In this document: positions 7,532-49,583 of the stretch, piece by piece
Layout of the letters: each line of letters opens with the position of its first letter
Position numbering within the stretch: position 1 is the first letter of the stretch
Source: Minisyncoccia bacterium
GTDB taxonomy: Bacteria > Patescibacteriota > Minisyncoccia > Phycocordibacterales > Zambryskibacteraceae
Assembly: GCA_049304015.1 (NCBI GenBank)
Contig: JBAQNS010000009.1
Coordinates: 3,228-67,227, forward strand
DNA: 64,000 nucleotides
Direction: 5' to 3'
Translations under genes and position numbers: made by a program
Notes under the pieces: generated by a model
Databases searched by the model: none
What the model was told of the DNA's origin: nothing
Seen by the model: the letters and a program-made list of their open reading frames with translations, nothing else

Positions 7532-7560
7532 AATTGAGCAACATTCGATGTTGCTCAATT
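7532..7560. repeat. Perfect 13-bp-arm palindrome AATTGAGCAACAT-tcg-ATGTTGCTCAATT; a partial copy lies at 7463-7486
   Basis: Seen directly. The copy at 7463-7481 (TTGAGCAACATCGGATGTT) is itself a shorter inverted repeat. Each copy abuts a stop codon on either side of the terminator. Confidence 0.5.
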
Positions 7561-9067
7561 AGTCGTTTATAAGTTTATATAATTCTCTCCAAATGGCATA
7601 CATTGCATAAGTATCTAGCTTGCAATAGTTTTTTAGGTTTTCAATGATTGTATCGCGTTCAAACGGTTCTAACTCAGATGTGACAATTTTGTTCCATGCT
7701 TGGGTGGCACTACCTCCTTCTTGGATTTCTAAATTCTTATAAGACAAATCTGGTGCAAGGACAGGTAGGACTTTTTTGATGGAGCTTGAACCTTTGTAGT
7801 CTTTGTGGACGTGGTATTGCTTCTTGAAAATATCTTCAAGGTCATAGGTGCGGTTATTAATATCATTCATAAAACCTTTAGCTTCAGGGATTCTTTCTGC
7901 TAATTCTTTGTTTCTATTACACTCAAAACTTTTGTGCCAAACAATAATACTTCCTACATTACCAATATGTCTCTGCATTGAATCCACGAAATCTTTGCTC
8001 GGGTCACCATTCTCTGTATAAAGAAATTCAAAATGTCTTGGTTCACTTTCTGGTTTGTTTACAACATGCAGTGAATATTGGAAGGGAATTTGTTGATATG
8101 GAGAGAAGCCGTTGAAACGAGGAATGGCAGCAGGAAAAGTTTCATAGTCTAAGAAGTAAAGAGGAAATATCAAATCTTCAAATTCTTCTCTAATTTTGTC
8201 ATGGTCAATAATCACTCTGTCGAATATATACGAGTCTATCTGATTTCTCTGTGTTTCTGACAATTCAAATTCCCTAGGTACATCTTTAATGTGAAAGATA
8301 TTTGAGTCTACAAGTTCAGTAAGTTTGACCTTGCTTAAACCAATTCTCGCTATGTCGTGGACACTATAATCAGGCACCTGAGGGTTAGAATAGTGGAAGG
8401 TAGTGCAGTGTTTTGAACGACCCTTGCGTAGACAAGAACAATGACCCACAGGTTCTATCTCTGTACTCAAATATTTCAAGGCAAAGTTCATTTCTCCCAG
8501 TACTTCTTCTACAATATTTTCTACTTGTTCTGTCACATCGGTAAATTCAAAAAGTCTAGTGATCTCAAGTTCTCCATCTCTCTTATATTCTGAATTAAGG
8601 TGGATAACCGTTGCTTTGTTTACTACGAGTCCTACACGACGTAAGACATTAACCTGAAAGGCGAGGTCATGAATATGGACCTTGTCATCCACGCTGTTTG
8701 AGGCCTTAATTTCATATATTGAATATGAATTAGTTTGTGAGTCGTATTTCAATATGTCTGATGCAGCAAGAAAATTATCAATATCAAAAACAGCCTGAAA
8801 GAGTGTGGGCTGTTTTTGATCTATATAATCTGCTGTTAGTTTTTGTGCATCTTCATCTCTGCCCTCTATAAGCACTCCAGTTGGGAAAAGTTGCCTAGCT
8901 ACTAATTCTACCTCATTACCTGTTTCTATGATTGATTTCTCGAATTCAGAAAGTTCCGACTTAAAGTATATGTCTGGTTTATGGATTTTGAGCCAGGTAT
9001 TCTTAGGACAGTCTCTGTAGAGAATGTAATTTGTTTTCGAAAGTGTGACTTGTCCTTTGGTAGTCAA
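7559..9067 (-). CDS. DUF2779-like protein (predicted nuclease; PD-(D/E)XK-like N-terminus plus DEDD-like C-terminal FLDYET motif)
   Basis: 502 aa; contains a ...CSCLRKGRSKHC... cysteine cluster and YFLDYETFPAAIP...PYQQIPFQYSLH, which I recall as the DUF2779 signature. The family assignment is from memory, not a search. Confidence 0.45.
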   Translation of the reverse strand: MTTKGQVTLSKTNYILYRDCPKNTWLKIHKPDIYFKSELSEFEKSIIETGNEVELVARQLFPTGVLIEGRDEDAQKLTADYIDQKQPTLFQAVFDIDNFLAASDILKYDSQTNSYSIYEIKASNSVDDKVHIHDLAFQVNVLRRVGLVVNKATVIHLNSEYKRDGELEITRLFEFTDVTEQVENIVEEVLGEMNFALKYLSTEIEPVGHCSCLRKGRSKHCTTFHYSNPQVPDYSVHDIARIGLSKVKLTELVDSNIFHIKDVPREFELSETQRNQIDSYIFDRVIIDHDKIREEFEDLIFPLYFLDYETFPAAIPRFNGFSPYQQIPFQYSLHVVNKPESEPRHFEFLYTENGDPSKDFVDSMQRHIGNVGSIIVWHKSFECNRNKELAERIPEAKGFMNDINNRTYDLEDIFKKQYHVHKDYKGSSSIKKVLPVLAPDLSYKNLEIQEGGSATQAWNKIVTSELEPFERDTIIENLKNYCKLDTYAMYAIWRELYKLIND

Positions 9068-19661: not shown

Positions 19662-19689
19662 GGGTAATTCTATATTTTAATATAAGTGC

Positions 19690-19717
19690 TTGACAAAACC
19701 TGTGAAAGGTGTATACT
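19690..19717 (+). promoter_or_regulatory. Consensus sigma70 promoter TTGACA-16 nt-TATACT
   Basis: Seen directly: cTTGACAaaacctgtgaaaggtgTATACTtcttgtA. No protein-coding gene follows on this strand. Confidence 0.5.
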
Positions 19718-19723
19718 TCTTGT

Positions 19724-20017
19724 AGAAGCTTTCTTACCGCCTGTGTGGACTAAGCGGTGAGATTGGAACGGGGCTGAAGTGGTCCACAACCAGTTGTTGG
19801 GAGAAGTAGAAACCAGTGAGTAGTCAATGTTCGATTGTCCAGCAGACTCGTCCCTCGAGACAGGGAAAAGAGGCGCTGAACAAGCAAGACAGGATTGATT
19901 CACCGTAGTACCTACCCGGGAACAAACAACTGGTCGTGTCATCTGCACCGTTCCGTGGATGATAATAGGGGTGTCTCGCATACAAGGCCCCGAAAAAACA
20001 GTTGTCCGGGTTTTTTT
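19724..20017 (+). ncRNA. Candidate structured ncRNA of unknown class (~290 nt, GC-rich)
   Basis: Bounded by the promoter above and a GC stem plus T7 at 20007-20017. Local GC is about 50% in a ~35% genome, with many local complementarities (e.g. TGTGGAC...GTCCACA, ACCGC...GCGGT). Neither overlapping ORF looks protein-like. Confidence 0.4.
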
Positions 20018-20020
20018 AAA

Positions 20021-20075
20021 ACCAAAGTGGCCAAGGCCACAAACAATACAGCGCTCCCTTCGGGTGAGCGCTATT
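20021..20075. terminator. Two tandem hairpins (GTGGCCaaGGCCAC and AGCGCTC-ccUUCGgg-t-GAGCGCT) terminating convergent transcripts
   Basis: Perfect palindromes, one with a UUCG tetraloop. T-rich tracts follow on the minus strand (fmt end) and the plus strand. Confidence 0.45.
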
Positions 20076-20081
20076 TTCATA

Positions 20082-20825
20082 TTAAAAAATTACCTTTGGG
20101 TTACCACGGAGATAATCTTTGTATTCCATTTCTTTCTTACCAGGAGGTATAACTCTGTCTGGCACAAATTTATTATCTTCTATATGAGCCTTAGTGATAA
20201 CTAACTCTCCTTTTCTGGCTCTTGGCCAAATTTCATAAGCACGAACTTTGCGAAGAGCAATTTCTGGAGAATCATTTGTAATATCTGCGTTTTCTTTTCT
20301 TATCATCTTTGTATATGATGTGCTCTCGTTTGTTTGCTCAACTTCCTTCACTTCACCATTAATATATTTGGGTAAAATTTCTACGAGCATTTCTCCTCCG
20401 ACTTTGGCCAATATTCTTTCAGTTTCTGAGTATCCAAGGTTTAGAGGCAACTCAACTTCCTTTTGAGCAAGTATTGGTCCTTCGTCCATTCTTTCATTTA
20501 TTCTTTGGATAGTAACACCGGTTTTTTCACCACTAAGGATGGCTCCTTGAATTGGTGAAGGTCCACGAAGTTTGGGTAATAGAGATGGGTGAACATTTAA
20601 AGTTTTAAACTTCGGCATATAGATAAGCCAATCAGGGAGAATCTTTCCAAACGAAGCTACTATGAATACATCCGCATTAATAGACTCAAGTTTCTCTTTA
20701 TCTAATGGTTCATGAGCAGAAGTAATAGAGAGTGCTGGTGTGAAGCCATGGTCTACAAGCTCCTTTAGAATAAGTTTAGAAAATTCTGATGAACCAAAAT
20801 ATACAAAGCGAATGTTATTTTGCAT
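20082..20825 (-). CDS. fmt: Methionyl-tRNA formyltransferase
   Basis: N-terminal formyltransferase fold (IRFVYFGSSEFS...) and an HPSLLPKLRGPSPIQ motif. Start taken at MQNNIRF; overlaps the def stop by 11 nt. Confidence 0.85.
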   Translation of the reverse strand: MQNNIRFVYFGSSEFSKLILKELVDHGFTPALSITSAHEPLDKEKLESINADVFIVASFGKILPDWLIYMPKFKTLNVHPSLLPKLRGPSPIQGAILSGEKTGVTIQRINERMDEGPILAQKEVELPLNLGYSETERILAKVGGEMLVEILPKYINGEVKEVEQTNESTSYTKMIRKENADITNDSPEIALRKVRAYEIWPRARKGELVITKAHIEDNKFVPDRVIPPGKKEMEYKDYLRGNPKVIF

Positions 20826-21351
20826 TTTTTTGAGGTGGAATGTTTTCCACATTTTCTGCCTTATCAATAAAGAGGACACCATTTAAGTGGTCAACCTCGT
20901 GTTGAAATATCTGAGCCATTAATCCAGACGCACCTTTTTGAAATTTTTTGCCGTATTCATCATAGGCTTCAATGGTAGCTTTGCTACTCCTTTCTACTTG
21001 TCCATATAGCCATCTTACAGAAAGACATCCTTCCTCCATTTTCTTTTTTGTTTTTGAAAGTTTCTTTATGACAGGATTAATGAAAACCTGATCAGGGAAA
21101 ATAGATTTTTCTTTTATATCTTCATCATTGTTACTAATTATAGAGATTGTCCTGCCACTTATCACAAATATTCTTAAACTCTCACCAATCTGAGGTGCTG
21201 CTATGGCTACTCCATCGTCTTCTTTCTTTAGAGCACGTTTCATCTTTTCCAAAACAATTTGAATTCTTTTTGTCTTAATATCTTCAATTTTTACCGGTTT
21301 GGCATGTTGTCTTAGAACCGGTGAAGTCATTTGATGTATTAGTCCTTTCAT
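20815..21351 (-). CDS. def: Peptide deformylase
   Basis: Three Def motifs: GIAAPQIG, EGCLS and QHEVDHLNG. Confidence 0.9.
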   Translation of the reverse strand: MKGLIHQMTSPVLRQHAKPVKIEDIKTKRIQIVLEKMKRALKKEDDGVAIAAPQIGESLRIFVISGRTISIISNNDEDIKEKSIFPDQVFINPVIKKLSKTKKKMEEGCLSVRWLYGQVERSSKATIEAYDEYGKKFQKGASGLMAQIFQHEVDHLNGVLFIDKAENVENIPPQKNAK

Positions 21352-23258
21352 ATAATGCTTATAGGGTCTACTTTAATCAAAAAATCAGAACTAAGCAAAA
21401 GTAATTTATCTACAAGATTTCTATTTGGCCACATATCTCGTTTGAGTCTTAGAATCATCGAGAGGTTAATCTTTCCACTTTTCATACCTTTAGATTTCAT
21501 AAAATCTGGATTAAATTCTCTAAATGTTTGTTCTAGATATACAGATTTCTTCTCTAATTCACTAGGGGTACCTTCTGTGGATACTTTAATGAAAATTGAG
21601 ATGGGAGGGTATTGAAGTTCGTTTCTTTCTTGGATGTCCTTCCTATAGTACTCAAGTATGTCACCTTTAGAGGACATGGAAAGGATTTCTCTGCCTATAT
21701 TTCTAGTTTGAATGATGGCCAATGATTCACATTTCTCTAAAATCCTATTAACCAAATAAAATATCCTTTCATTAATATTAAAATCAGGAATTGAAAAGAG
21801 TGAATCCAAGGATACAACTCCTACATAAGGAATTTTTTCTAAATAAAGCAGTGCTAGTTCTGTCCCTATTAAAACTCCTTGCTCGTCATTCATGAATTTG
21901 CTCACTATTGATAGTGCCTTTGGAGCTGTACTGGCTTTGTCTTTATCCAATATATAAACATTTGCCTCAGGGAAGAGATTTTTGACTTCACTTGAGATTT
22001 TGTCTATACCGATGCCTAATGGGTTAAGGTTCCAGCTCGTGCATTTGTCGCACCTTGTTTCAGCTGTCCTCTTGGCTCCACAGGCGTGGCATAAATAAAA
22101 TCTTTCTTTTGCTTCGTGTAGTACTAGAGGCGCACCACAGTTAGAACACGCAAGCAGGTCTCCACAATCATTACAGATTGTAGAAGAAGCCAAACCTCTG
22201 CGTGTCCCAAATAAGAATATTTTCTTCTTTTCATTTAGTGCCCTTTCTATAAGTTCTTTGAGCTCTCTTGAGAATATTCTAAATTTCACTAACTCTTCTT
22301 CAGTGAGCTTGGCCGGGGCTTTCATATCAATCAGATTTACAGCTGCATCAAATCTAGTTTTCCACTTTAATGGCGATAATTCTGCAAACTTTCCTTGTTT
22401 TTCTAACCACAAAGATTTTATTGACAGCACTGAATCACCGAGGATAAGTGTTTTACCAGTCTCGCGAGCAAGTATTTCAAAAAAAGTTTTTGTATCAATG
22501 TAGGGTCTAGATAAAGTCTTATACGAACGAGAATTTTCTCTTTCTATAATTATCGTATTTAAATCCGTTCTATCAAATGCTCCATAAGATGAGGTGGTTA
22601 CCAATAAAATTGGATGTTTTTCTTTGTGGCATTTAATAAAGGTTTCTTTTAATTTCTTTTGGCTAAGGCCAATAGTAGTGAAGGCAAAGTCCTCAATGCC
22701 CTTGGATAATGTCTCAAATGATCTCTTAGCCTCTTCAACAGTTGGAGTAATAAACAAAATTGAACTACCTCGAGCGAAGGATTCTCTAATAATAGTTTTA
22801 TACTCTCCAAATCTTTCATCAAAAGGTAGTTGAATTAAGAACGGTTCATGAATGGTTTCTGGTTTATTTCTTTCTTTTTGAGTACTTTGAACTAATTCTG
22901 GGAAGTCCAAGAAGAATTTCGGCAGGACGGTACTTATAATGTTGCCGGTGGTAGTGGCAAAATAAGTTGCAGTTTGCTCGCAAGCTCTGATGAATCCTAT
23001 TGAAAGCTTTGTAGAACCACCCTTGGATAGTTTCTTTAAAGCAAACGAAGAACTTTTCAAATCACTCTTTACTGACCTTGCGTCCGAAATATTTGTGACT
23101 AAACCAAGTCCTAATTTATTTCTAATACTTATCCTCACAAAAGAACCAACTAAAACATCATCTTTTGTGAAGTAGGAAAGTGAAGAACGAAGCAATGATC
23201 TGCTTATAGGGATGACGGTTACTACCTTTAGGGTGTTCTTTTTTCCTTCTCTTTTCAT
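21348..23258 (-). CDS. priA: Primosomal protein N' (PriA) homolog with apparently degenerate helicase motifs
   Basis: N-terminal 3'-DNA-binding region (IPISRSLLRSSLSYF...VGSFVRISIRNKLGLGLV) and a 4x CxxC zinc-binding insert (CNDCGDLLACSNCG...CHACG...CDKCTS) are present. The helicase motifs look substituted: Walker A-like GEYKT, motif II EREN in place of DEEH, motif III DSVL in place of SATP, motif VI NRILEK in place of GRAGR. Lies in the conserved priA-def-fmt order. Confidence 0.8.
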   Translation of the reverse strand: MKREGKKNTLKVVTVIPISRSLLRSSLSYFTKDDVLVGSFVRISIRNKLGLGLVTNISDARSVKSDLKSSSFALKKLSKGGSTKLSIGFIRACEQTATYFATTTGNIISTVLPKFFLDFPELVQSTQKERNKPETIHEPFLIQLPFDERFGEYKTIIRESFARGSSILFITPTVEEAKRSFETLSKGIEDFAFTTIGLSQKKLKETFIKCHKEKHPILLVTTSSYGAFDRTDLNTIIIERENSRSYKTLSRPYIDTKTFFEILARETGKTLILGDSVLSIKSLWLEKQGKFAELSPLKWKTRFDAAVNLIDMKAPAKLTEEELVKFRIFSRELKELIERALNEKKKIFLFGTRRGLASSTICNDCGDLLACSNCGAPLVLHEAKERFYLCHACGAKRTAETRCDKCTSWNLNPLGIGIDKISSEVKNLFPEANVYILDKDKASTAPKALSIVSKFMNDEQGVLIGTELALLYLEKIPYVGVVSLDSLFSIPDFNINERIFYLVNRILEKCESLAIIQTRNIGREILSMSSKGDILEYYRKDIQERNELQYPPISIFIKVSTEGTPSELEKKSVYLEQTFREFNPDFMKSKGMKSGKINLSMILRLKRDMWPNRNLVDKLLLLSSDFLIKVDPISII

Positions 23259-23286
23259 ACGGCTATTATAGCGGTATCATAAGGCA

Positions 23287-36215: not shown

Positions 36216-37922
36216 ATGAAATCATTAATAAAATCTGCTTATAACCCAATTGCAGTGGGAGTAATACTCGCTTCTGCTCTTTTTCTGTTCGCAAATAATG
36301 CCCTTGCTTATGCAAATCCCGCTGTAGTTAATCTTGGTGGAGCTGCAAACTTCGCAGTTCTATCTTCAACAGCAATTACTAATACTCCAGCTTCAGTCAT
36401 AACTGGGGATATTGGGGTTAGCCCAGCTGCAGCTACATTCATAACTGGCTTCACTTGTCCTGCTGTCACAGGAACTGTGCATGTAGTCAGTGCTGGTGGT
36501 CCCACTCTAGCATGTCAGACAATTGACCCCGCTTACCTTACTCCAACTGTTTTAGAGTACGAGGCTGCTTATAGTGATGCACAAGGAAGAACTGCTGATG
36601 CCACTATCACTACAGCACTTGATGGTCTTACATACACACCAGGTGTATACAGTGCAGCGAATCTTGATTTGAACAACGGCAGTAGTGTCACATTAGATTG
36701 TAGTAGTAATGCGAATGGCGTTTTCATTTTTCAAACAGCCGGACACCTAAATGTTGGCACGAGTGCTCATGTGAACATTGGTAGCTGTAATTCAGGGAAC
36801 ATTTTCTGGGTTGTTGCGGGTACTACTAACATCCTCGGAGGGACAGGCACAGAGTCTACATTTCAGGGTACAGTTCTTGGTGGCCAGGGCACAACAGAAA
36901 TATCCTTAGGCGTTGGTTCAACTATACTTGGAAGATTGATGAGCGATAAAACTATTTCACTACAAGGAAATATAATTACTGTACCCACGACTCCTCCAGT
37001 ACCTGGTCCAATATTCATTGATTTGAATACCAATGGAACTCTGGATTCAGGAGAACAATCATTCACTACTATCCAAGCAGCAATAACTGCAGCAACAATA
37101 GGAGATAAAATCATTCTTACTTCAGATATAACCACCACAGCACAAATTCTAATCAATAAAGCTCTTACAATTGATGGTCTTGGACATACACTATTTGCGA
37201 CAATAACTAGCGGGGCAAACTCAGCTATAACAATTAGTGCAAATGATGTCACTATTAAAAATCTTGTAGAAAATGGTACTGGAAGTACAGGTATTCATGG
37301 GTTCAATATTTATCAAGCAAGCAATGTAACTCTTGATGCTGTAACCGCTTCAAACAATAATAAATCTGGAATTACAGTAAACGGTTCAGTTGTAACAGTT
37401 AATAACATTAAAACAGCCGGTAATGCGTGGGGTGGTATCAATGTTGATTTGGGCAGTGGTGTTGTTGGTCCAGCTACACTCACAGTAAATGGCACCAGTG
37501 CTCACACTGAGGTTAACGCAGATATCTGGAAAGATGACAACGCAAAGATGAATGTGACAGTAGTAGATACCAACCATCAATATTCTAATTCAACTTATAC
37601 TCATGATGTAAGTATTGTTGGAACAAAATACAAACTTCTTGTAGCTGAGCAAACACCTCCAGAAGAAGTTGACACCACTCCTGCTGTGCCAGTTCCTGGA
37701 GGACACAGAAGGAATAATAATGCTGCTACACCATCACTACCATCACAGGCTTCTCCTGTCGCTGTAGGACGTGTCCTTGGTGCCTTCACTGGACCAGATG
37801 GCTCAAGTGAAACATCACTTCAAATCATTGCTATTAAAACTCAACTTGTTGGTCTAATCAGAGAGTTAATCGCAATGCTCCAGATACAACTACAAGCAGC
37901 TAAGGATGCTGGTCAGTACTAA
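36216..37922 (+). CDS. Secreted surface protein: DUF3494 (ice-binding-like) N-domain plus parallel beta-helix repeats plus conserved C-terminal heptad module
   Basis: Signal/TM N-terminus; LGGAANFAVLSSTAITNTPASVITGDIGVSPAAATFITGF matches the DUF3494 signature; NxxxNG beta-helix repeats; C-terminal QASPVAVGRVLGA...LQIIAIKTQLVGLIRELIAMLQIQLQ. Confidence 0.7.
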   Translation: MKSLIKSAYNPIAVGVILASALFLFANNALAYANPAVVNLGGAANFAVLSSTAITNTPASVITGDIGVSPAAATFITGFTCPAVTGTVHVVSAGGPTLACQTIDPAYLTPTVLEYEAAYSDAQGRTADATITTALDGLTYTPGVYSAANLDLNNGSSVTLDCSSNANGVFIFQTAGHLNVGTSAHVNIGSCNSGNIFWVVAGTTNILGGTGTESTFQGTVLGGQGTTEISLGVGSTILGRLMSDKTISLQGNIITVPTTPPVPGPIFIDLNTNGTLDSGEQSFTTIQAAITAATIGDKIILTSDITTTAQILINKALTIDGLGHTLFATITSGANSAITISANDVTIKNLVENGTGSTGIHGFNIYQASNVTLDAVTASNNNKSGITVNGSVVTVNNIKTAGNAWGGINVDLGSGVVGPATLTVNGTSAHTEVNADIWKDDNAKMNVTVVDTNHQYSNSTYTHDVSIVGTKYKLLVAEQTPPEEVDTTPAVPVPGGHRRNNNAATPSLPSQASPVAVGRVLGAFTGPDGSSETSLQIIAIKTQLVGLIRELIAMLQIQLQAAKDAGQY

Positions 37923-37996: not shown

Positions 37997-38084
37997 GAAA
38001 GCAACAACTTATTAGAGGTGTTTTTGTGTGTTAAGTTGCCTTAATCAAGTATTATTTAAATTAACTAGTATTAATAACATTAAA

Positions 38085-40085
38085 ATGAAATCTTTAATCA
38101 AATCAGCTTACAGGCTAACAGCCGTGGGTGGAATCCTCGCAGTAGCCTTCTTCGCTTTCGCGGGGAATGCGAAAGCGTATACTCAAGCAGACTTTGCAGC
38201 ATTTGATGGTGTTAATATCGGAACAAACAGTTATACGGTAAGTTCTGATATTACAGCGACATATATTAGTGGTACTGGTACTGAAACTGATCCAGTTAAG
38301 TTAACGTTAACAGGACATGCACCAATAATAACCCCATGGTTTGGCCAAAATTGGACAACGTATAACTATGTAGCAATAGGAATTAAACTACCGACGACAG
38401 GTTTTATTGGAACCCAAATAACTGGTGGAACTGCTGTATATCAAGCAGATGTGATGAGATATGATGATCTGACTAACTTTCCGAATGGCTATTACACAGT
38501 AGGATATGGAAGTATCCCATTGGCAACAGGAGGTGCCGCGCTCGGTTATTTGGACTATGAATTCGCAGCTAATTCAAATAATACTAAGAAAGACGGATTA
38601 GTTAAACTGAAAGTAATTTGGAATACAGATAGTGCACCCGAATATTTCACGATTGATATTAACGGCCTGCAATTAGATACCGCTACACACAAGTTTGTTT
38701 CTACTATTGGACAACTTACGTCAGCACTTGCTGCCGCAAATTCTGGCGACACAATTACACTAACCTCCAACATAACCACAAGTTCTGAGCTTGATATAAA
38801 CAAAGCTCTAACACTAGATGGTGCAGGACATAAATTAAGTGCTTCTTTTTTGAGAACAGATAATAGTAATAATTCTGCTATAGGAATTAAAAGTGTTGAC
38901 GGTGTAACAATAAAAAATCTTATAGTTGACGGAACAGGTGGGAGTTCAGTTTGGTTGAGTCAACTTCACGGGATAAATATATATTTATCAACAAATGTAA
39001 ACTTGAATGATGTAACAGCAATGAATTTTGGTGGTGCCGGCATTAATGTTAACGGTTCTTTAGTAACTGTAAACAACATCACAACATCAGGCAATTCATG
39101 GGGCGGTATTAATGTTGATAGACCAACAGTTACAAATACAACCACACTAACAGTAAATGGAATAAGTTCTCACAACGAAGTTAATGCTGCAATATGGAGA
39201 GATGATAATGCAAAAACAAACGTAACTGTTATAGATATGGATCACCAGTATTCTCAATCCACATATACTCATGATACAAATGTTGTAGGAACCTTGTGGA
39301 AGTTACTTGCAACAGGTCAAATTGTTCCAGAAAATGGTGAGGCTACAGTTACTCCAACAAATAAAGAAGTTGTTGTTACTGCAACGACACCAATCACGGT
39401 TAATCTGGGAAGTGTTGAAGACGCAACTATAAACTTTGATTCACTTATTACAAATGGAGAAGGAGTTATTCCTCAGACAACCATTATTTCAAATGTTGCA
39501 GAAGTAAAAATTGATGATGGTACAAAAGTCACTGCAACTGATACTAATTGGAATGGAGTGATGCAGGCACCAACAGCCGGTGATACATCAGGAACAGCTC
39601 CTGCCAGTTTCTCTGTTGGTAATACGGTTATTGAAATGGGTTCATCTCAATATACTCTGAACTTTGACAAGGCGGTGAAGATTACACTTCCTGGTGTCAC
39701 AGGTAGAGTTGGTTATAGACCAGCTGGTTCTACAGAGTGGCAGCTAATTACAACTCAGTGCACAAGTTCAACAGTTCCAGGTATCACCTCTGGTGAATGC
39801 TATGTTGCTGAAGGTGGAAATACTGTCATTTGGACTTACCACTTCACATCTTTTGGAGGACTAGAACCCATTTCTGTAAATAAATCTGGTGGAAGAAGTG
39901 GTGGAGGCAGAGCCACAATCTTACCTCCTCAAGCCTCTCCTGTAGCAGTAGGACGAGTACTCGGCGCAGAGACAGAAAATGCTGCAGCTGTAGCTCTACA
40001 GATTGCCTCCATTAAAGCTCAGTTAGCAGATTTGATTAGACAACTAATTACTCTTCTTCAAGCTCAGATAGATTCACAGAGATAA
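38085..40085 (+). CDS. Secreted parallel beta-helix surface protein (paralog) with conserved C-terminal heptad module
   Basis: Signal peptide MKSLIKSAY... (the same N-terminal 9 aa as the upstream gene); the beta-helix block NLIVDGTGGSS...GINIYLSTNVNLNDVTAMNFGGAGINVNGSLVTVNNITTSGNSWGGINVD is shared with the upstream gene; C-terminal QASPVAVGRVLGAETENAAAVALQIASIKAQLADLIRQLITLLQAQI. Confidence 0.7.
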   Translation: MKSLIKSAYRLTAVGGILAVAFFAFAGNAKAYTQADFAAFDGVNIGTNSYTVSSDITATYISGTGTETDPVKLTLTGHAPIITPWFGQNWTTYNYVAIGIKLPTTGFIGTQITGGTAVYQADVMRYDDLTNFPNGYYTVGYGSIPLATGGAALGYLDYEFAANSNNTKKDGLVKLKVIWNTDSAPEYFTIDINGLQLDTATHKFVSTIGQLTSALAAANSGDTITLTSNITTSSELDINKALTLDGAGHKLSASFLRTDNSNNSAIGIKSVDGVTIKNLIVDGTGGSSVWLSQLHGINIYLSTNVNLNDVTAMNFGGAGINVNGSLVTVNNITTSGNSWGGINVDRPTVTNTTTLTVNGISSHNEVNAAIWRDDNAKTNVTVIDMDHQYSQSTYTHDTNVVGTLWKLLATGQIVPENGEATVTPTNKEVVVTATTPITVNLGSVEDATINFDSLITNGEGVIPQTTIISNVAEVKIDDGTKVTATDTNWNGVMQAPTAGDTSGTAPASFSVGNTVIEMGSSQYTLNFDKAVKITLPGVTGRVGYRPAGSTEWQLITTQCTSSTVPGITSGECYVAEGGNTVIWTYHFTSFGGLEPISVNKSGGRSGGGRATILPPQASPVAVGRVLGAETENAAAVALQIASIKAQLADLIRQLITLLQAQIDSQR

Positions 40086-41274: not shown

Positions 41275-42258
41275 ATGATTAAGTGGTTCAAAAAACACTT
41301 TATACCTCATGAAGGCAATGACCATCAGCCTCATTTTCTTCGTACCAAAAATATTCGAGCAGTCGTTCTAATTCTTTTTGTTTTGGAGTTAGGAGTTTTT
41401 GCCATTCCTTATATACCTGCAATAGGTCCAGCATACAACAATTACCTCGCAGCAGTTTTGCCCGGAGTGTTGGACAGTCTTTCTAATCAAACAAGACAAG
41501 AAAATCATTTAGCCACCCTTACTGTTAGCCCACTCTTAAATAAAGTGGCTGAACTGAAAGCGAAGGACATGGCAGAAAAAGGATACTTTGCCCACACCAG
41601 TCCCGAAGGCAGAGCGCCTTGGTATTGGTTCGATAAAGCTGGTTATAAATATTTGTTCGCTGGAGAGAACTTAGCAGTAGACTTCACTGATTCAAAAGAT
41701 GTTACTTTGGCCTGGATGAATTCTCCTACACATAGAGCCAATATAGTGAAAGGCGTCTATACAGAAATGGGTACTGGAGTAGTGAGTGGTAACTTTGAAG
41801 GTCACCCAACTATTTTTGTTGTCCAAGTCTATGCGAGACCACTAACTACGATTGCTACTGTTTCTGAACCAAGTGCAGTTTCAAATATTAAGCCAACAAC
41901 AACTCAAACTACTAAGACTGTTGAATCCAAGGTCCTCGGTGCAGAAGTGGCCTTAGATGCAAACGTCACTTCACCCACACAACCTAAATCAAATTTGCTC
42001 ATGCAGTATGTTACTTCTCCTGGACGTGTAGCCAATATGATTTTTGTTATTTTGGGCATAATGATTTTACTCGCCTTAGTACTGAAATTATTTATAAGAA
42101 CAGATAAACGACATCCAAAACTCATTACCAATGGACTTGTTGTTTTGGTACTAATCTTTGGAATTTATAGTGTGAATAGTTACATAACCAAGAATAAAAT
42201 TTCACATAATATTACTTTCTACAGCTTTAACAATGAGAACCTTACTGACACTTACTAG
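41275..42258 (+). CDS. CAP/SCP/PR-1 (YkwD-like) domain protein, membrane-anchored at both ends
   Basis: CAP motifs (HYTQVVWRATxxVGCA-like: GHPTIFVVQVY; HRANIVKGVYTEMGTGVV) and N- and C-terminal TM helices. Start taken at MIKWFKK, downstream of a TATAAT box. Confidence 0.7.
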   Translation: MIKWFKKHFIPHEGNDHQPHFLRTKNIRAVVLILFVLELGVFAIPYIPAIGPAYNNYLAAVLPGVLDSLSNQTRQENHLATLTVSPLLNKVAELKAKDMAEKGYFAHTSPEGRAPWYWFDKAGYKYLFAGENLAVDFTDSKDVTLAWMNSPTHRANIVKGVYTEMGTGVVSGNFEGHPTIFVVQVYARPLTTIATVSEPSAVSNIKPTTTQTTKTVESKVLGAEVALDANVTSPTQPKSNLLMQYVTSPGRVANMIFVILGIMILLALVLKLFIRTDKRHPKLITNGLVVLVLIFGIYSVNSYITKNKISHNITFYSFNNENLTDTY

Positions 42259-42998
42259 AGCACCTCTATTTCAGAAATTTTATTTGATTTAAATTCATAT
42301 AGACTGGCTGGTCGGGAACGATTACCAATTCTCTTGTGATGTAGTCTCTCTAGTATCTTTAATTTCAATATTTTCTTCCTAAAATTACGCTTATCCAAAT
42401 CAGCCTTGAGGATACTCTCGTATGCTTGTTCGAGTTCAGTGAGAGTAAATTCTTTGGGCATCAGTTTGCACATCAATGTTGTATAAGTGATTCTTGATTG
42501 GAGTCTCCTTAGAGCTACTTTGAGAACTTCATCGTGGTCATAGGCAAGATTTGATAATTGATCAACATGTTTCCATGACAATTCTCTAGTATTAATTTTT
42601 TCTGTTTCAGTTAATGATTCCCATGGCACTAATCCAATATAGGCGACTGCCACAACGCGTCCACGAGGATCTCTATTAATGCGGCTAAATGTATATAATT
42701 GCTCAATATGAATTTTTTTAGTTGAAATCATGCCCGCTCTATCTTTCACTAGACGTACTACCGCTTGCTCAGCTGTTTCAGTAGGGAGCATAAGGCCACC
42801 AGGAAGTCCTGGTCTATCTACAAAGTGGGGGATATGGTTGACTTTCATGATGCGGACAAGAAGTTCCTTATTGTGAATAGTGAATAAGGCTATATCTGCG
42901 GCCAAGACAGCGAAACGTAGGTGTTTAGGAGAACTATTTTTAGGCATAAATAATTTATAGCAACATACAGATATATTGTCAAATATACACTTATCCAC
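42255..42998 (-). CDS. NrtR-like regulator (degenerate Nudix domain plus C-terminal winged-helix)
   Basis: Nudix fold with an incomplete Nudix box (GLPGGLMLPTETAEQAVVRLVKDRAG lacks the REx2EE glutamates) and a C-terminal DNA-binding-like region. The likely start is the Met at 42947. Confidence 0.6.
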   Translation of the reverse strand: MDKCIFDNISVCCYKLFMPKNSSPKHLRFAVLAADIALFTIHNKELLVRIMKVNHIPHFVDRPGLPGGLMLPTETAEQAVVRLVKDRAGMISTKKIHIEQLYTFSRINRDPRGRVVAVAYIGLVPWESLTETEKINTRELSWKHVDQLSNLAYDHDEVLKVALRRLQSRITYTTLMCKLMPKEFTLTELEQAYESILKADLDKRNFRKKILKLKILERLHHKRIGNRSRPASLYEFKSNKISEIEVL

Positions 42999-43132: not shown

Positions 43133-44023
43133 TTGTCAGAGAGATTTAGTTTAGCTGACAATCTATTTAGTTCAATTTTGACCTCAAAAGGAGGGATATT
43201 GATTATCAAAGATCCTGGCTCTGGGAAGAGCTATGAAGTTGGTCAAAGAGTGGCTGAGACCGAAAGGTATCGGCTTTATCTCTGTAGACCAGAGGGTGAG
43301 TCTTCGGACCACCTGCTTCAAATCGCGGTGGAGGTGGAGCATAATGCTGCCCTCGATCGCGCGTCGTACGTTCTGGAAAGGCTCGAAGAAGAAGCTCGCA
43401 AGATCGAGGAAGAGTTCGCCAAGGTGAAAACCGAGCCGAATCACTTCCTGAATTACCAACTCTGTTTCCCCAAGGTCGTGGGTTCATTCATACCAGACGA
43501 TCAGGGTGGCAGACGAGTAAACATCCTTTGCTTCAGAGAGGTGGAGGATGTAGGCAAGGTTGTACCGCTACAGAACCTCGTAGAGACGGACAAGCTTCGT
43601 GCAGATTTGAGGTCGAGTGCTTGGATCATGGGGAAACTCCTCAAGATCCTCATCTTCCTCAATGATGCGAATGTGGTTGCTCATGATCTGTCGCTCGGCA
43701 ATGTTCTCATCGAACCCGAGCAACACTACGTCATCATTTTCAGTTGGGCTGACGCCGAATTGAAAGCTGGTGCAGTAGGTAGAGCAATCACGAGAAGTGA
43801 AATTCAAGCAGCTGCTCGCGTTGTCATCGAAGTGCTGGGAGGTACTCTCGAAGGAGGTATCCCCGGTGATGGTGGTCAAGAGCATGTTCAGTATCAGAAG
43901 TTTCTCTTCGACCTCGCACATGGCAGTGAAAGTAACGCGGCACTGGCTCACATGTCGTTCTACAAGTTGGTTGATAGTTTGTGGCCACGCGGTTTCTATC
44001 CATTCACCACCCACTCTCGGTAA
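43133..44023 (+). CDS. Protein-kinase-like/APH-family phosphotransferase (divergent) - first gene of high-GC island
   Basis: Gly-rich loop IKDPGSGKSYEV and catalytic loop VAHDLSLGNVLIE (compare HGDLHPGNIL of APH/CotS and HRDLKPENIL of kinases), followed by IIFSWADAE. High-GC codon usage. The start is ambiguous: TTG at 43133, or TTG at 43199 after an AAGGAGGG SD. Confidence 0.55.
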   Translation: MSERFSLADNLFSSILTSKGGILIIKDPGSGKSYEVGQRVAETERYRLYLCRPEGESSDHLLQIAVEVEHNAALDRASYVLERLEEEARKIEEEFAKVKTEPNHFLNYQLCFPKVVGSFIPDDQGGRRVNILCFREVEDVGKVVPLQNLVETDKLRADLRSSAWIMGKLLKILIFLNDANVVAHDLSLGNVLIEPEQHYVIIFSWADAELKAGAVGRAITRSEIQAAARVVIEVLGGTLEGGIPGDGGQEHVQYQKFLFDLAHGSESNAALAHMSFYKLVDSLWPRGFYPFTTHSR

Positions 44024-44040
44024 AACGGGAAGGAAGGACG

Positions 44041-45165
44041 ATGGGAAGCAGAACATTCTCGAGGGATGCCTACGTCAAGGCGAGCAGCTTGTACACCAAG
44101 CCGGGTGAGTCAACGACTGCCCGAGGTGAACAAGAAGTTCGTCGGACAGGCAAGCTGAATCCACTTGTGGATCCGGCTGAATTCGGAGTAGTGCGTGAAT
44201 CACGCATTCGCCTCGAAGATCGAGAAGGAGGTGGCTTCACTGTCACCGTGGGCACACCAGTGCCTGTCGAGTATCGTCTGGACACCACTGGTTCCATGGG
44301 TGACAACGTCGAACGGGCGTACAAGGCACTGCCGCATACGTGCGAGCATGTGGCCGCTGTACTGCCAGGCCGAGACCCCTTCTACTGCGCTTCGATTTTC
44401 GGTGATGTCGTCGACCAGTTCGTACTGTGTCGAGGACAATTCGAAGCCGAAGCAGAGAAGATGGTCAACCAACTCACGCTCATGGTTCCAGAAGGTAGCG
44501 GTGGAGACACCCCAGAAGATCCTCAGTACGGACTCTTCGGTGCCGCCTACCTTACCAACGCTTATCTGCAACGTATCGGTTTGCGCTCCTATGACTTCAC
44601 TGTCACGGACGCACCGATGCATGATCTGATTAGCGCCAAGCAGCTCAAGCGTATCTTCGGTGATGAAGTGTTCGAGAAGCTGAAGGAAAATGGCCAGTCG
44701 ATTTCAGCGAAGGATTTACCCTCCAATACAGAGATCGTCAAGGATCTCTTGAAGAGGGCTCATGCCTTTGCTTTCATGGTTGGCAATTCTGCCACCCACG
44801 CCTGGACCAGCCTCTACGGTTCCGAACACGTGATTCTTCTGCCCCGGATCGAGTACACTCCTCACATCATGGCCGTTATCATTGGCCTGACGGAAGGAAC
44901 TCTCGATTTGCGTTCATCCAAGGATTTCTTGACTGAACGCAACCTCAGCAAGGTCGAAGCACAGGGCATCATCGACGCAGTGGCGCACATCCCGCTCGGT
45001 GCACAGACCATGTGCCCCAATTTCGACAAGTTGCCCAAGGCAGGTGACATCTTCAAGGAGAAGACCGACCTCTGGCCGATCGATCCGGAAGACATTCCTA
45101 CTTCTGCTGCTCCGAAGAAGGGCAAGAAGGGCGGCAAGGAATCTGGCAAGGGTGGGTGGCTCTAG
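44041..45165 (+). CDS. von Willebrand factor A (vWA) domain protein with MIDAS motif
   Basis: RLDTTGSMGDN (DxTGS MIDAS), a later VTDAPMHD element, and a Lys/Gly-rich C-tail. GGAAGGAAGGA SD before the ATG at 44041. Confidence 0.7.
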   Translation: MGSRTFSRDAYVKASSLYTKPGESTTARGEQEVRRTGKLNPLVDPAEFGVVRESRIRLEDREGGGFTVTVGTPVPVEYRLDTTGSMGDNVERAYKALPHTCEHVAAVLPGRDPFYCASIFGDVVDQFVLCRGQFEAEAEKMVNQLTLMVPEGSGGDTPEDPQYGLFGAAYLTNAYLQRIGLRSYDFTVTDAPMHDLISAKQLKRIFGDEVFEKLKENGQSISAKDLPSNTEIVKDLLKRAHAFAFMVGNSATHAWTSLYGSEHVILLPRIEYTPHIMAVIIGLTEGTLDLRSSKDFLTERNLSKVEAQGIIDAVAHIPLGAQTMCPNFDKLPKAGDIFKEKTDLWPIDPEDIPTSAAPKKGKKGGKESGKGGWL

Positions 45166-45192
45166 GCTTTCACTTCGACCGAGGACGTGACG

Positions 45193-46566
45193 ATGAAAAA
45201 GATTTACGTCGTCACGGACCTTGGTCCTGGTGACGGTGGTAAGGGTGGTGTGGTCCACAAGATCAGCCACATGCAAGGTGCTCACACTATCCTCAAGGTA
45301 GGAGGAGCACAGGGAAGTCATGGAGTATCTACTTCGAGTGGAAAACGATTTGCCTTTAGTCAATTTGGTTGTGGCACCTTCGAAGGTGTTCGCACTCACT
45401 TGACCAAGAGGTTCGTTGCTTCACCTGAAGGGATACTCAACGAAGCGCAAGCTTTGGATCAAGGTTGTGGTTTGAGTGATGTCTACAGTCTGCTCACAGT
45501 GGATGAGGATGTCATTTGTGCCACTCCGTATCATGGCATCTCTTCACGCTTGAAAGAGCTTGCAAGAGGAGATAATCTTCGCGGTACGATTGGGACAGGG
45601 GTTGGTGAGGCGTTTCGCTACAACCAACGTTTTCCTGAACTGACTATCCGTGCGAAGGATCTCTTCAGCCAAAACCTAAGAGAGCTGCTGGCTGCAGTTA
45701 GAGACCAACTACACGTTGACCTCGAATCTGTAATTAGTGGTACTTTCTTAGAAAGTGATAGGGTCTTAGTTGAACAAGAAGTAGATCGTCTGCTTGATCC
45801 GAAATACCTTGAATTTATTTTGCATCGTTTTCGAACGGCTGCAAAGCATGTCCGAATAGTAGGCCAAGAGTATTTTCATGATCTTACCACCAGCTATGGT
45901 GTGATGGTTGTTGAAAGTTCTCATGGTGTACTGACGGATCATTTTCAAGGGTTTCATCCTCATACTTCAGCCATTCGAACACTTCCTCGCTTCACGCGTG
46001 GGATGCTCGAAGAAGTTGGATATGATGGCGAACTGGTGAACATTGGGGTAACCCGTGCATATCAAATTCGTCATGGTGCAGGGCCTATGCCAACAGCCGA
46101 TGAGGCTATGGCAGAAAACCTTTTACCAGGAAGTTCGAAGGATGAGAATCGCTATCAGGGAAAGGTGCGTGTTGGTCCACTTGATTTGGTACTGCTTCGT
46201 TATGCGATAGCAGCCTGTGGTGGACCAGATGCATTCGACGGCTTGGCTGTCACCTGGTTCGATCAAATCCAGGAGAATGGATCTTGGTTTTTGTGTCGGA
46301 GCTACAAGGGAGCAACAGATCAAAACTTTTTCACCCCACAAGGTGAGTTGAAGGTTCGATTTGGAGATGATGAAGAACAGTTGAAGTATCAGGAGGAACT
46401 TGGTCACCATCTAGAAAGGTGCGTACCAGTGCTCACAGAGCACACAGTTTCTCCTGGTCCCAACTTTAACTTCCTCACTTGCTCTGCAGTATTGAATGAA
46501 GCACTTCGAGTACCTGTACGGATGGTCTCGTTCGGATCTACCGAACAAGAAAAATTGTGTAGGTGA
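45193..46566 (+). CDS. Adenylosuccinate synthetase (PurA)-family protein, highly divergent
   Basis: PurA hallmarks present: GDGGKGG (cf. GDEGKGK), GGAQGSHG (cf. GGHNAGHT), GTIGTGVGEA (cf. GTTGRGIGP), TRAYQIRHGAGPMPT (cf. TRVGAGPFPTE), VRVGPLDLVLLRYA (cf. GWLDTVAVRRA). The Asp-binding GATTGRRRR loop is replaced by NRYQGKVRVG and Gln224 (EGAQG) is replaced by His (ESSHG). Confidence 0.75.
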   Translation: MKKIYVVTDLGPGDGGKGGVVHKISHMQGAHTILKVGGAQGSHGVSTSSGKRFAFSQFGCGTFEGVRTHLTKRFVASPEGILNEAQALDQGCGLSDVYSLLTVDEDVICATPYHGISSRLKELARGDNLRGTIGTGVGEAFRYNQRFPELTIRAKDLFSQNLRELLAAVRDQLHVDLESVISGTFLESDRVLVEQEVDRLLDPKYLEFILHRFRTAAKHVRIVGQEYFHDLTTSYGVMVVESSHGVLTDHFQGFHPHTSAIRTLPRFTRGMLEEVGYDGELVNIGVTRAYQIRHGAGPMPTADEAMAENLLPGSSKDENRYQGKVRVGPLDLVLLRYAIAACGGPDAFDGLAVTWFDQIQENGSWFLCRSYKGATDQNFFTPQGELKVRFGDDEEQLKYQEELGHHLERCVPVLTEHTVSPGPNFNFLTCSAVLNEALRVPVRMVSFGSTEQEKLCR

Positions 46567-46588
46567 ATTCAAACCACAAGGAGTAACC

Positions 46589-47807: not shown

Positions 47808-49583
47808 TTATGAAAGTTTAGGGAGAAAAACTCTTTGGGTAAAAAGTTTAAGTGCAGTTTGTCTAAATCCTGAATCCCAAAATACACTCTTTCCATCAAC
47901 AAGTTCGGAATGTTCAGTATGCAATCCGCCGGAGGGAGGTAAAAATTTCTTGTACCCCTTGTGCATCAGTCTGTATTGCAAGGTGTCTCTTTCAAGTTCC
48001 TCTAAGAAAACTCTTCGTGCAGGCAATCCATAAATTTCACCATTATTGTAAAAATATTGAGTCAAAAGTTTTTCGTGCAAATCTTTTATCACTTGTTTGT
48101 CTCCATCCCAAACTGCTCCAAACAAAACATGGGTCCAGTAACTTTCTCCTACGAATGGTTCTGGTTTATCAAAATCATGAACCTTTAATCCAATTGGTGC
48201 TTCCTCTAACCAAAACTCTATAGTGTCTCCATGAGCATATTTTTGAGGAAGCTTTGACTTGAGTAACTCCTTAACTCTCTCCTTATCCTCCAATTTAATT
48301 TCAGGTTTAACAAAAATAGCCAAATCTAAGTCAGAATTTGATGTCCCATAGCCCTTAAGTTTTGAGCCAAAATACAATGCCACAGGGTATAAATACTGTG
48401 CCAGCTCTGCATCATTTTCGATTATTGAGGTAATATTATTCATAATTTCTTGATCATTATTAGCCTCAGTCAAATTTTTTGAAAACGGTCCTGATAGGGA
48501 AGTGAGTTTTAGACCAAGACTCAAAAATACAGCTTCATCCAAAATATTTAATTTGTTTAATCTATAGAAAAGAGTTGAAAGTTCATCTACAGTCTCTGGA
48601 GTTTTTTTATCCCAAAGTGACATTATGATATCCTCATATTTTTTGTATATTTTTATAGCTTCATCTTGATTTACTGCTGTTGTTGACTCTATGGCATCTC
48701 GGATACCAATAACCAAGGCGAGTTTGTCATCACTAGTTACGACCTTTTCATCCTCTAGTACTAGTTTTGCTATATCACGGGCTTTTGATTCTGTATCCCT
48801 TCTCTTTCTTTCACTACTTAACCAAGCAGTGCGTCCTTCTGTGACTATTTCTGGTTCTTCAATTTCAATTCTAGCTTCAGAAACATTAATTTGCCCCAAG
48901 TATTTATCCTCCACAAGTCCCAGGTCGACCGCTACAGTGAGTGCTTCATATGCATTTTGTCTAAAGACGTCATCATCACTTTCACTGATTAAGTTTAAAA
49001 CTTTATCTACACTAATTAATTCCTTTTCTATTAATTTAGGGATTAAGTGCGCAGCCTTTACCACTCTGGGCAAATCACTTTCTCTTAATTCTACTTCTAA
49101 TACATCTCCATCAACAAAATTTGCTCGGACATCATGTATATCTAAGCATGCTTCCCATGCATTCATGTATGTTGCTCTAAATTTTTCTGCAGCTTGTGAC
49201 AGTTCACTATCAGGAGCACCTAAATTTACACTCGGTAAATATTCGAATGGCACATAAAGCAAAGCTCTTTTATAATCTGGGTTTTCAAGTAAATGACTCA
49301 ATGATTCAAACAAATCTATAACCTGCTTCTCACTCAGCTGGCCTTCATTTAGTGCCAGTTCTAACTCAATATTAGGTTTTCGCATATTAGAAATCACAGC
49401 TTCAACACTTTCAATTATTTTTTTGCGTTCTTCTATTTGTTTAATGAATACCTCATTGTCCAAAATCTTTTCTGGCCAAACATTCGACTGATTAGTTGAA
49501 TCAAGTAGTGATTCAACTGCAGGTACGGTAAATTGTCTTTTCTCTGCTGATTCTTCGTTTAGATTTGTGCCCTCTCTATACAT
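47808..49583 (-). CDS. Pol-beta-superfamily nucleotidyltransferase domain protein with large N-terminal helical region
   Basis: C-terminal GS...D.D motif (FGSKLKGYGTSNSDLDLAIFV); 591 aa. The true start is probably downstream of 49583 because of the divergent overlap with ychF. Confidence 0.5.
   Translation of the reverse strand: MYREGTNLNEESAEKRQFTVPAVESLLDSTNQSNVWPEKILDNEVFIKQIEERKKIIESVEAVISNMRKPNIELELALNEGQLSEKQVIDLFESLSHLLENPDYKRALLYVPFEYLPSVNLGAPDSELSQAAEKFRATYMNAWEACLDIHDVRANFVDGDVLEVELRESDLPRVVKAAHLIPKLIEKELISVDKVLNLISESDDDVFRQNAYEALTVAVDLGLVEDKYLGQINVSEARIEIEEPEIVTEGRTAWLSSERKRRDTESKARDIAKLVLEDEKVVTSDDKLALVIGIRDAIESTTAVNQDEAIKIYKKYEDIIMSLWDKKTPETVDELSTLFYRLNKLNILDEAVFLSLGLKLTSLSGPFSKNLTEANNDQEIMNNITSIIENDAELAQYLYPVALYFGSKLKGYGTSNSDLDLAIFVKPEIKLEDKERVKELLKSKLPQKYAHGDTIEFWLEEAPIGLKVHDFDKPEPFVGESYWTHVLFGAVWDGDKQVIKDLHEKLLTQYFYNNGEIYGLPARRVFLEELERDTLQYRLMHKGYKKFLPPSGGLHTEHSELVDGKSVFWDSGFRQTALKLFTQRVFLPKLS

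Follow-up and report, generated by a model that had tools for sequence, protein, structure and literature searches.

The closest described counterparts of the protein analyzed here are PriA proteins that have lost their motor activity. In Deinococcus radiodurans, the lysine of the PriA Walker A motif is replaced by arginine, and the protein, which shows no ATPase or unwinding activity, binds single-stranded DNA (ssDNA), forks, and DnaB (Lopper et al. 2015; PMC4504706). A later review lists Deinococcus as the sole exception to the conservation of the PriA helicase (PMC5778457). The E. coli PriA variants K230R (priA300), K230A, and K230D lack ATPase, helicase, and translocase activity; they assemble primosomes and support the PriA-PriB route of restart (PMC5778457, PMC10175261). 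Here we describe a priA-like gene at 21348..23258 on the minus strand of a 64,000-nucleotide stretch of a Minisyncoccia bacterium chromosome (assembly GCA_049304015.1, contig JBAQNS010000009.1, positions 3,228 to 67,227), referred to below as the window; the host is of the Parcubacteria type within the Candidate Phyla Radiation (CPR). The open reading frame (ORF) begins with ATG, encodes 636 amino acids, and lies exactly where the initial annotation placed it. That annotation had proposed a PriA specialized for primosome assembly without helicase activity, and our in silico analysis supports this, with the loss of ATPase activity being predicted from sequence and a structural model. The gene is probably a CPR PriA ortholog that has become a pseudohelicase of a Parcubacteria type and would act as an ATP-independent fork scaffold recruiting the replicative helicase. 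As a kind, the PriA pseudohelicase has been known since 2015 (PMC4504706); its occurrence in the CPR appears to be new, as nothing on a helicase-dead PriA came up in full-text literature searches for PriA in Patescibacteria, Parcubacteria, or CPR.

The ORF encodes a true PriA homolog. The model TIGR00595 (replication restart helicase PriA) matches residues 154-573 with an E-value of 4.4e-58 and a score of 197.1 bits, which is below the curated cutoff of 230.35. The PRK05580 sub-models all fall far under their cutoffs for this protein, the actinobacterial PriA models PRK14873 match weakly at no more than 60 bits, and the Pfam models for the zinc ribbon (PF18319, E 0.0025) and the 3′-DNA-binding domain (3′BD; PF17764, E 0.017) are both under their gathering scores. 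Because the protein lies outside the curated PriA equivalog cutoff, the identical protein in the database is labelled “hypothetical protein [Minisyncoccia bacterium]”. Searches with phmmer against the PriA chains of the PDB (4nl4, 6dgd, 8fak, and 6dcr) returned E-values of 5e-25 to 6e-21, and hhalign aligned a 71-sequence family profile with E. coli PriA over 523 columns at a probability of 99.9% (E 3.4e-31). An AlphaFold2 model built from the family alignment has a mean predicted local distance difference test score (pLDDT) of 87.7 and a predicted template modelling score of 0.87. When this model was compared with the PDB in Foldseek, the top nine matches were all PriA (E 1e-35 to 1e-24, template modelling (TM) score of approximately 0.7 to 0.72, approximately 690 columns), followed by Mfd and DEAD-box proteins at E 1e-9. 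AlphaFold2, Foldseek, and hhalign agree on the overall architecture of PriA, with a 3′BD, two RecA-like lobes, a cysteine-rich region (CRR) within lobe 2, plus a C-terminal domain (CTD).

Within this conserved architecture, the motifs of an active superfamily 2 (SF2) DNA helicase are missing. The register of the motifs was taken from three agreeing alignments (phmmer against the PDB, MAFFT against E. coli PriA, and hhalign), anchored by the pairing of Y153 with E. coli Y234 and of FARG with LAQG. Helicase lobe 1 (aa 139-300, 22359..22844; all features of this gene are on the minus strand) is RecA-like, has 16 positions conserved at 90% or more, and carries degenerate versions of motifs I, Ia, II, and III. 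The Walker A remnant is QLPFDERFGEY (aa 143-153, 22800..22832; hhalign and MAFFT register), in which E. coli G227-S-G-K-T231 pairs with F146-D-E-R-F150, such that R149 falls under K230 and zero glycines remain. The initial annotation was correct in calling Walker A degenerate, but its proposed counterpart, GEYKT, was set four residues too far toward the C terminus, and the corrected register is more degenerate than had been thought. In the AlphaFold2 model a strand at 140-143 is followed two residues later by a helix from F146, and the glycine-rich P-loop is absent; D147 and E148 occupy the positions where backbone amides bind phosphate. The E. coli motif Ia sequence PEIGLT is reduced to P----T by a four-residue deletion. 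Motif II (DEEHD, E. coli 320-324) is replaced by ERENS (aa 239-243, 22530..22544), with the catalytic Glu321 position occupied by Arg or Lys and a family-wide pattern of [ED][RK]E[NS]S. Next comes the segment that matches the aromatic-rich loop (aa 244-257, RSYKTLSRPYIDTK, 22488..22529), whose role in E. coli PriA has been described (PMC5778457, PMC10175261); here W333 is replaced by P252 (99% conserved) and H336 by D255 (95%), and R338 is retained as Lys or Arg. Motif III, GSATP in E. coli, is reduced to GDSVL (aa 274-278, 22425..22439).

Lobe 2 is divided into two parts by the CRR. Its first part (aa 301-355, 22194..22358) retains motif IV, in which E. coli FLNRRG corresponds to FLFGTRRG (FLFGxR[KR]G in the family, with R353 97% and G355 99% conserved). 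Its second part (aa 413-545, 21624..22022) carries a partial motif V, where the GTE corresponding to E. coli GTQ is retained and KGHHFP is lost, and a motif VI remnant, NRILEKC (aa 504-510, 21729..21749). The E. coli sequence QVAGRAGRAG pairs there with R505-I, a five-residue gap, and L-E-K, so that the deletion removes AGRAG and the arginine pair. The substitutions that the initial annotation had read at motifs II, III, and VI (ERENS, DSVL, and NRILEK) were all recovered by phmmer, MAFFT, and hhalign. It had also named what would overturn its reading, namely intact motifs elsewhere in the sequence; profile alignment located none, and a regular-expression scan of the whole protein found GxxxxGK[ST], DExH, SAT, and QxxGRxxR all absent. 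The sole GKT in the protein, at residue 268, is not conserved among relatives. As an internal control, UvrB, encoded approximately 2 kb away, has intact GVTGSGKT, DESH, SAT, and QIIGRAAR motifs, and both P-loops of UvrA in the same window are present.

Thus none of the features of an active SF2 DNA helicase (Walker A, DExH with its catalytic Glu, SAT, and QxxGRxGR) is found here, while two sequence features of a Deinococcus-Thermus-type pseudohelicase, the Walker A Lys-to-Arg replacement (R149, 99% conserved) and off-consensus Walker A and B motifs, are. From the alignments and the model we infer that every residue for ATP binding and hydrolysis has been lost from this PriA. An enzyme that is still active, using non-canonical residues such as R149 and R/K240 as phosphate ligands or relying on a second nucleotide site, might be suspected from the strong conservation of the replacement residues, two of which are basic and sit in the former cleft, and from the weaker second nucleotide-binding site proposed for E. 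coli PriA (PMC5778457). We regard this as very unlikely, as the P-loop glycines are gone, acidic D147 and E148 stand at the phosphate-binding positions, a helix takes the place of the loop in the model, the catalytic Glu has become Arg or Lys, motif III is lost, and the arginine pair of motif VI is deleted; in E. coli, K230R by itself abolishes the ATPase (PMC4504706, PMC5778457).

The degenerate state is not a peculiarity of this genome. It is found in all 119 of the closest database relatives and in 147 cluster representatives at 32-58% identity. The 78 full-length copies collected from GTDB species genomes share it, as do 118 further relatives gathered around one family member, P0160 (NCBI MCI0680446.1). 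Pooling these sets gave 387 distinct full-length relatives; no P-loop occupies the Walker A position in any of them, and the motif VI arginine pair (GRxGR or QxxGRxxR) is missing throughout. A DEEH sequence at motif II occurs in one of the 387, P0160, yet the Walker A of that protein reads DDDRD and its motif VI is deleted. Its DEEH may have been inherited from a canonical ancestor or may have arisen by reversion. When transitional relatives that still had intact motifs were sought around P0160, all 118 of its nearest relatives proved fully degenerate. Three stray matches to motif patterns among the 147 representatives were rejected, as they are located away from Walker A.

An exhaustive HMMER scan placed 2,128 clusters (at 50% identity) at E<=1e-30, a number that is an upper bound because canonical PriAs of closer phyla may reach the same E-value, and family-specific peptide patterns match 550 GTDB species genomes. 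Where hosts are informatively named they belong to Parcubacteria lineages (Zambryskibacteria, Taylorbacteria, Campbellbacteria, Paceibacterota, and Minisyncoccia). As these hosts are all Patescibacteria/Parcubacteria, the origin of the family was likely independent of the Deinococcus-Thermus pseudohelicases. Many metagenome-assembled genomes (MAGs) titled “uncultured Candidatus Saccharibacteria bacterium” (L004, L012, L014, L021, and others) also carry a Parcubacteria-type PriA, one of them 76% identical to the protein described here, and a few family-bearing MAG records have Victivallales or Nitrospira in their titles. Such labels appear generic or mis-binned and were not used for taxonomy.

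Within the clade, the degenerate state is fixed and under purifying selection. Compared with the closest relative (76% amino acid identity), the gene has a pN of 0.14 and a pS of 0.75; the latter is saturated, so pN and pS are given in place of a whole-gene dN/dS, and per-domain values have a very large dS. The strongest constraint in this comparison falls on lobe 1 (pN 0.091), the segment with the dead motifs, and among the divergent representatives lobe 1 is conserved to the same degree as lobe 2 and the zinc module. Across the representatives at 32-58% identity, 59 positions are conserved at 90% or more, and the residues that replaced the catalytic ones are near-invariant: R149 (99%), Y153 (95%), R158 (99%), S166 (99%), E241 (95%), P252 (99%), and D255 (95%). 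A gene in decay, or a pseudogene in the making that has already lost its function, might be expected in the reduced genomes of the CPR, and scores under the curated PriA cutoffs together with the NCBI label “hypothetical protein” would fit such a view. This explanation is exceedingly improbable in light of full-length, intact ORFs in at least 550 species genomes, the low pN against saturated synonymous sites, the 59 highly conserved positions, the confident predicted fold, and the translational coupling of the gene to the essential genes def and fmt, described below. Going by the sequences surveyed, the Parcubacteria family would be the second natural group of PriA pseudohelicases after Deinococcus, and a far larger one.

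The modules that surround the motor have been retained to different degrees. The 3′BD (aa 10-118, 22905..23231) keeps its fold as judged by hhalign and a weak PF17764 match over aa 19-113, and precomputed PF17764 matches exist for many relatives; Y29 and G38 are 99% and 97% conserved. In E. coli, the pocket for the DNA 3′ end is formed by D17, Y18, G37, and K61 (PMC5778457). Here L27-S28-Y29 stands for F16-D17-Y18, such that Y18 is matched by Y29 while D17 becomes S28; R46 takes the place of G37, and different alignments pair K61 with K64, K68, or K76. G38 and K76, which MAFFT offered as conserved equivalents of G37 and K61, were dropped, as hhalign pairs G38 with E. coli G29. The initial claim that the 3′-end-binding region is conserved therefore holds for the fold and only in part for the pocket, in which only the Y18 equivalent is clearly kept, and the Pfam match is sub-threshold. 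The winged-helix (WH) domain, which in the E. coli and Klebsiella structures lies between the 3′BD and the helicase core (approximately residues 106-178 in E. coli), has no counterpart and is gapped in all relatives. The initial annotation had mentioned neither this absence nor the motif Ia deletion and the loss of KGHHFP. In its place is a short, variable 20-residue linker (aa 119-138, 22845..22904), which has the highest entropy of all segments.

The CRR (aa 356-412, 22023..22193; PF18319) contains four CxxC pairs for two zinc ions, C362/365, C371/374, C390/393, and C403/406. Each pairs in turn with its E. coli counterpart (C436/439, C445/448, C463/466, and C476/479), and conservation of these cysteines is 97-100%, bearing out what had first been read from the sequence. 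In E. coli PriA, the residues that dock PriB are D438, S481, T482, and H483 (PMC10175261). The matching positions are D364 (98% conserved), S or G at 408, W409 (98%), and R, K, or N at 410, and this D364/S408-W409 patch is, speculatively, a candidate docking site for a partner. The CTD (aa 546-636, 21351..21623), supported by Foldseek, contains a P551-P552 pair conserved at approximately 100% and has a beta-alpha-beta-beta-alpha-beta order; the DSSP assignment on the AlphaFold2 model gives strands at 554-563, 585-590, 597-606, and 627-630 and helices at 565-582 and 613-620. Both RecA-like folds are present in the model.

A comparison with the described PriA proteins shows both shared features and differences. 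Like D. radiodurans PriA, the protein has off-consensus Walker A and B motifs with the Walker A Lys replaced by Arg (R149), and by analogy the activity profile of the D. radiodurans protein is the outcome that would be expected here. The loss is deeper than in D. radiodurans, however, extending to the P-loop glycines and motif III, with deletions in motifs Ia and VI and an absent WH domain; the host belongs to the Parcubacteria within the CPR, and the clade is far larger. The E. coli K230R variant (priA300) has an Arg at the same position, but the K230 variants were made in the laboratory by point mutation of a helicase that is intact in all other respects and has PriB, DnaT, and DnaC as partners, whereas in the Parcubacteria protein the whole catalytic apparatus has been remodelled and evolutionarily fixed, and the CPR are not known to have PriB or DnaT partners. 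The E. coli PriA WH-deletion structure (PDB 6dcr) has the same set of domains, 3′BD, two lobes, CRR, and CTD without a WH domain, and, with TM scores of 0.73/0.72, is among the best structural matches; in that protein the deletion was engineered and the helicase motifs are intact, while here the absence of the WH domain is natural and the motor appears dead. With canonical PriA (TIGR00595, PRK05580) the protein shares the eight-Cys CRR, both RecA-like folds, and the CTD; it keeps motif IV and, in part, motif V, and has the same priA-def-fmt gene order, but it scores below the cutoff (197 vs 230 bits) and has neither a WH domain nor motifs I, Ia, II, III, and VI.

The genetic context of the gene is that of priA. 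Directly 3′ of it are def, encoding peptide deformylase (20815..21351, minus strand; PF01327 E 3.4e-43, NF001159 above cutoff), and fmt, encoding a short, 247-aa form of methionyl-tRNA formyltransferase (20082..20825, minus strand, start as given by the gene caller; PF00551 E 1.3e-27, TIGR00460 E 7e-46 and below cutoff, synteny). The stop codon of priA and the start codon of def share an ATGA overlap, def and fmt overlap by 11 nt, and priA-def-fmt is a translationally coupled operon; the initial annotation had already placed the gene in the canonical priA-def-fmt order. In 80 related loci, def and fmt lie directly 3′ of priA in most of those with downstream room, and mreB lies upstream. The same priA-def-fmt order occurs in Bacillus subtilis. 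In the window, mreB is divergent and begins 28 bp upstream of priA, with tgt and then uvrB beyond it.

A PriA-derived paralog with a new job, such as structure-specific DNA binding in recombination or chromosome segregation, with restart carried out by a canonical PriA encoded elsewhere or by a PriA-independent route, has to be weighed against this context. The lost WH domain and the altered 3′-end pocket speak for such a change of role, and the strongly conserved dead cleft and CRR patch (D364, W409) could be new interaction sites. Yet within the priA-def-fmt operon the gene stands where priA belongs, each locus has one PriA-like gene with no other in the 0.99 Mb covered (a weak test), the modules through which E. 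coli PriA contacts the fork independently of ATP are all kept except the WH domain (PMC10175261), and the helicase-dead PriAs that are known remain restart proteins (PMC4504706). We consider a paralog of this kind unlikely, if still worth keeping in mind.

Two further observations concern the ends of this operon. Only 28 bp (window 23259-23286) separate the annotated start of priA from the divergent start of mreB, and the N-terminal nine residues of PriA lack conservation, are modelled at low pLDDT, and are missing from many relatives; because of this, the true start of priA, or the promoters, may be located inside the annotated coding regions. At the other end, TIGR00460 covers Fmt only at model positions 72-235 of 315, with 156.7 bits against a cutoff of 201.5, and the C-terminal tRNA-binding domain of Fmt appears to be reduced.

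If the protein is, as we favor, a PriA pseudohelicase acting in restart, it would recognize abandoned forks and D-loops by contacts that do not require ATP. Such contacts of E. coli PriA with the fork involve the 3′BD, lobe 1, CRR, lobe 2, and CTD, the last three of which enclose the lagging-strand ssDNA in a pore (PMC10175261). The Parcubacteria protein may similarly provide a landing pad that brings DnaB, directly or via a loader, to the lagging-strand template. When the lagging arm is duplex, E. coli PriA must unwind it before the CRR switch and the recruitment of partners (PMC13594977). Since the protein is predicted to be unable to unwind a duplex lagging arm, it would act only on forks and D-loops in which lagging-strand ssDNA is already exposed, or else rely on another helicase. 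The former ATP cleft holds conserved charges, D/E-E-R149 and [E/D]-[R/K]-E241; these would most likely pair in a network of salt bridges that holds the two lobes in a set arrangement, although this assignment is speculative.

Several points weigh against this reading. The loss of ATP binding is deduced from sequence and a predicted model. The tblastn search for a second canonical PriA, which returned none, covered the window and the 80 loci (0.99 Mb) and is a weak test. The pocket changes (D17 to S and G37 to R) and the missing WH domain suggest that fork recognition may differ from that in E. coli. None of dnaB, dciA, and ssb is encoded within the window. The strong conservation of the replacement residues could also mean that they bind a new ligand or partner, as opposed to filling the cleft in a purely structural way. 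A wider proposal is that Parcubacteria, and possibly more of the CPR, restart replication with a single minimal, ATP-independent PriA that arose independently of that of Deinococcus-Thermus and converged on the Lys-to-Arg replacement, with the former ATP cleft turned into a salt-bridge lock and the CRR patch (D364, S408-W409) serving to dock DnaB or a DciA-type loader; we put this forward as a tentative possibility.

Otherwise the window carries ordinary core-chromosome genes (rpoB/C, dnaG, rpoD, hisS, truB, bipA, uvrB, uvrA, uvrC, ddl, leuS, alaS, and others), among which a few regions stand out. Between fmt and hpf, the 421 nt at 19662-20082 have a GC content of 0.47 against a background of approximately 0.36. 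NCBI annotates no gene there, and the 136-aa ORF found mechanically is rich in Cys, Ser, Thr, and Arg and has no Pfam match. Folded as RNA on the priA strand, the region has a minimum free energy of -137.6 kcal/mol with a z-score of -4.9 (-3.0 on the plus strand), and relative L004 has, at the corresponding position, a 40-nt patch with 92% conservation. No Rfam match was found even at E<=1, nor any tRNA or tmRNA. This region may be an unannotated structured RNA.

A 4.5-kb GC-rich island at approximately 43200-47700 (0.44-0.64 vs 0.36) contains four co-oriented ORFs. One of these (45187..46566, 459 aa) matches phrog_1211, “2-aminooxy adenylosuccinate synthetase”, at E 5.5e-40, better than it matches cellular PurA, and is approximately 34% identical to the “PurA-like” genes of approximately 200 large mycobacteriophages; the other ORFs have no family apart from a weak match to a phage “kinase”. 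On its two sides lie genes for an NrtR-like NUDIX regulator (42255..42998) and a 591-aa Pol-beta-type nucleotidyltransferase (47808..49583). The island has the appearance of a phage-type cassette for nucleotide metabolism that a CPR chromosome acquired horizontally. Elsewhere, the ORF at 7559-9067 on the minus strand encodes a 502-aa DUF2779/UU173-family protein, and the 685-aa ORF at 38028-40085 on the plus strand, which has no match in Pfam, NCBIfam, or PHROGs, adjoins an ice-binding-like protein (36216..37922) and small YDG-domain ORFs. The products of 7559-9067 and 38028-40085 are probably cell-surface proteins.

In conclusion, the Parcubacteria PriA family offers a large and clean natural experiment on what is required of PriA, even if its outcome is unsurprising in principle. 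Because a radical loss of the motor and of the WH domain is accompanied by strong constraint, our findings support the view that fork recognition and helicase recruitment, and not unwinding, are the indispensable functions of PriA. The family falls under the NCBIfam and Pfam thresholds and is annotated mostly as “hypothetical protein”, and therefore genome surveys may wrongly score PriA, and replication restart with it, as absent in the CPR. At 636 aa and without a WH domain, the protein is also a naturally minimized PriA for structural and biochemical work. Our analysis predicts that these small-genome bacteria would restart only those forks in which lagging-strand ssDNA is exposed, or would need another helicase. 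If the CPR do rely on a single scaffold of independent origin, the ancestral core of PriA would be fork recognition and recruitment, with the motor as an accessory.

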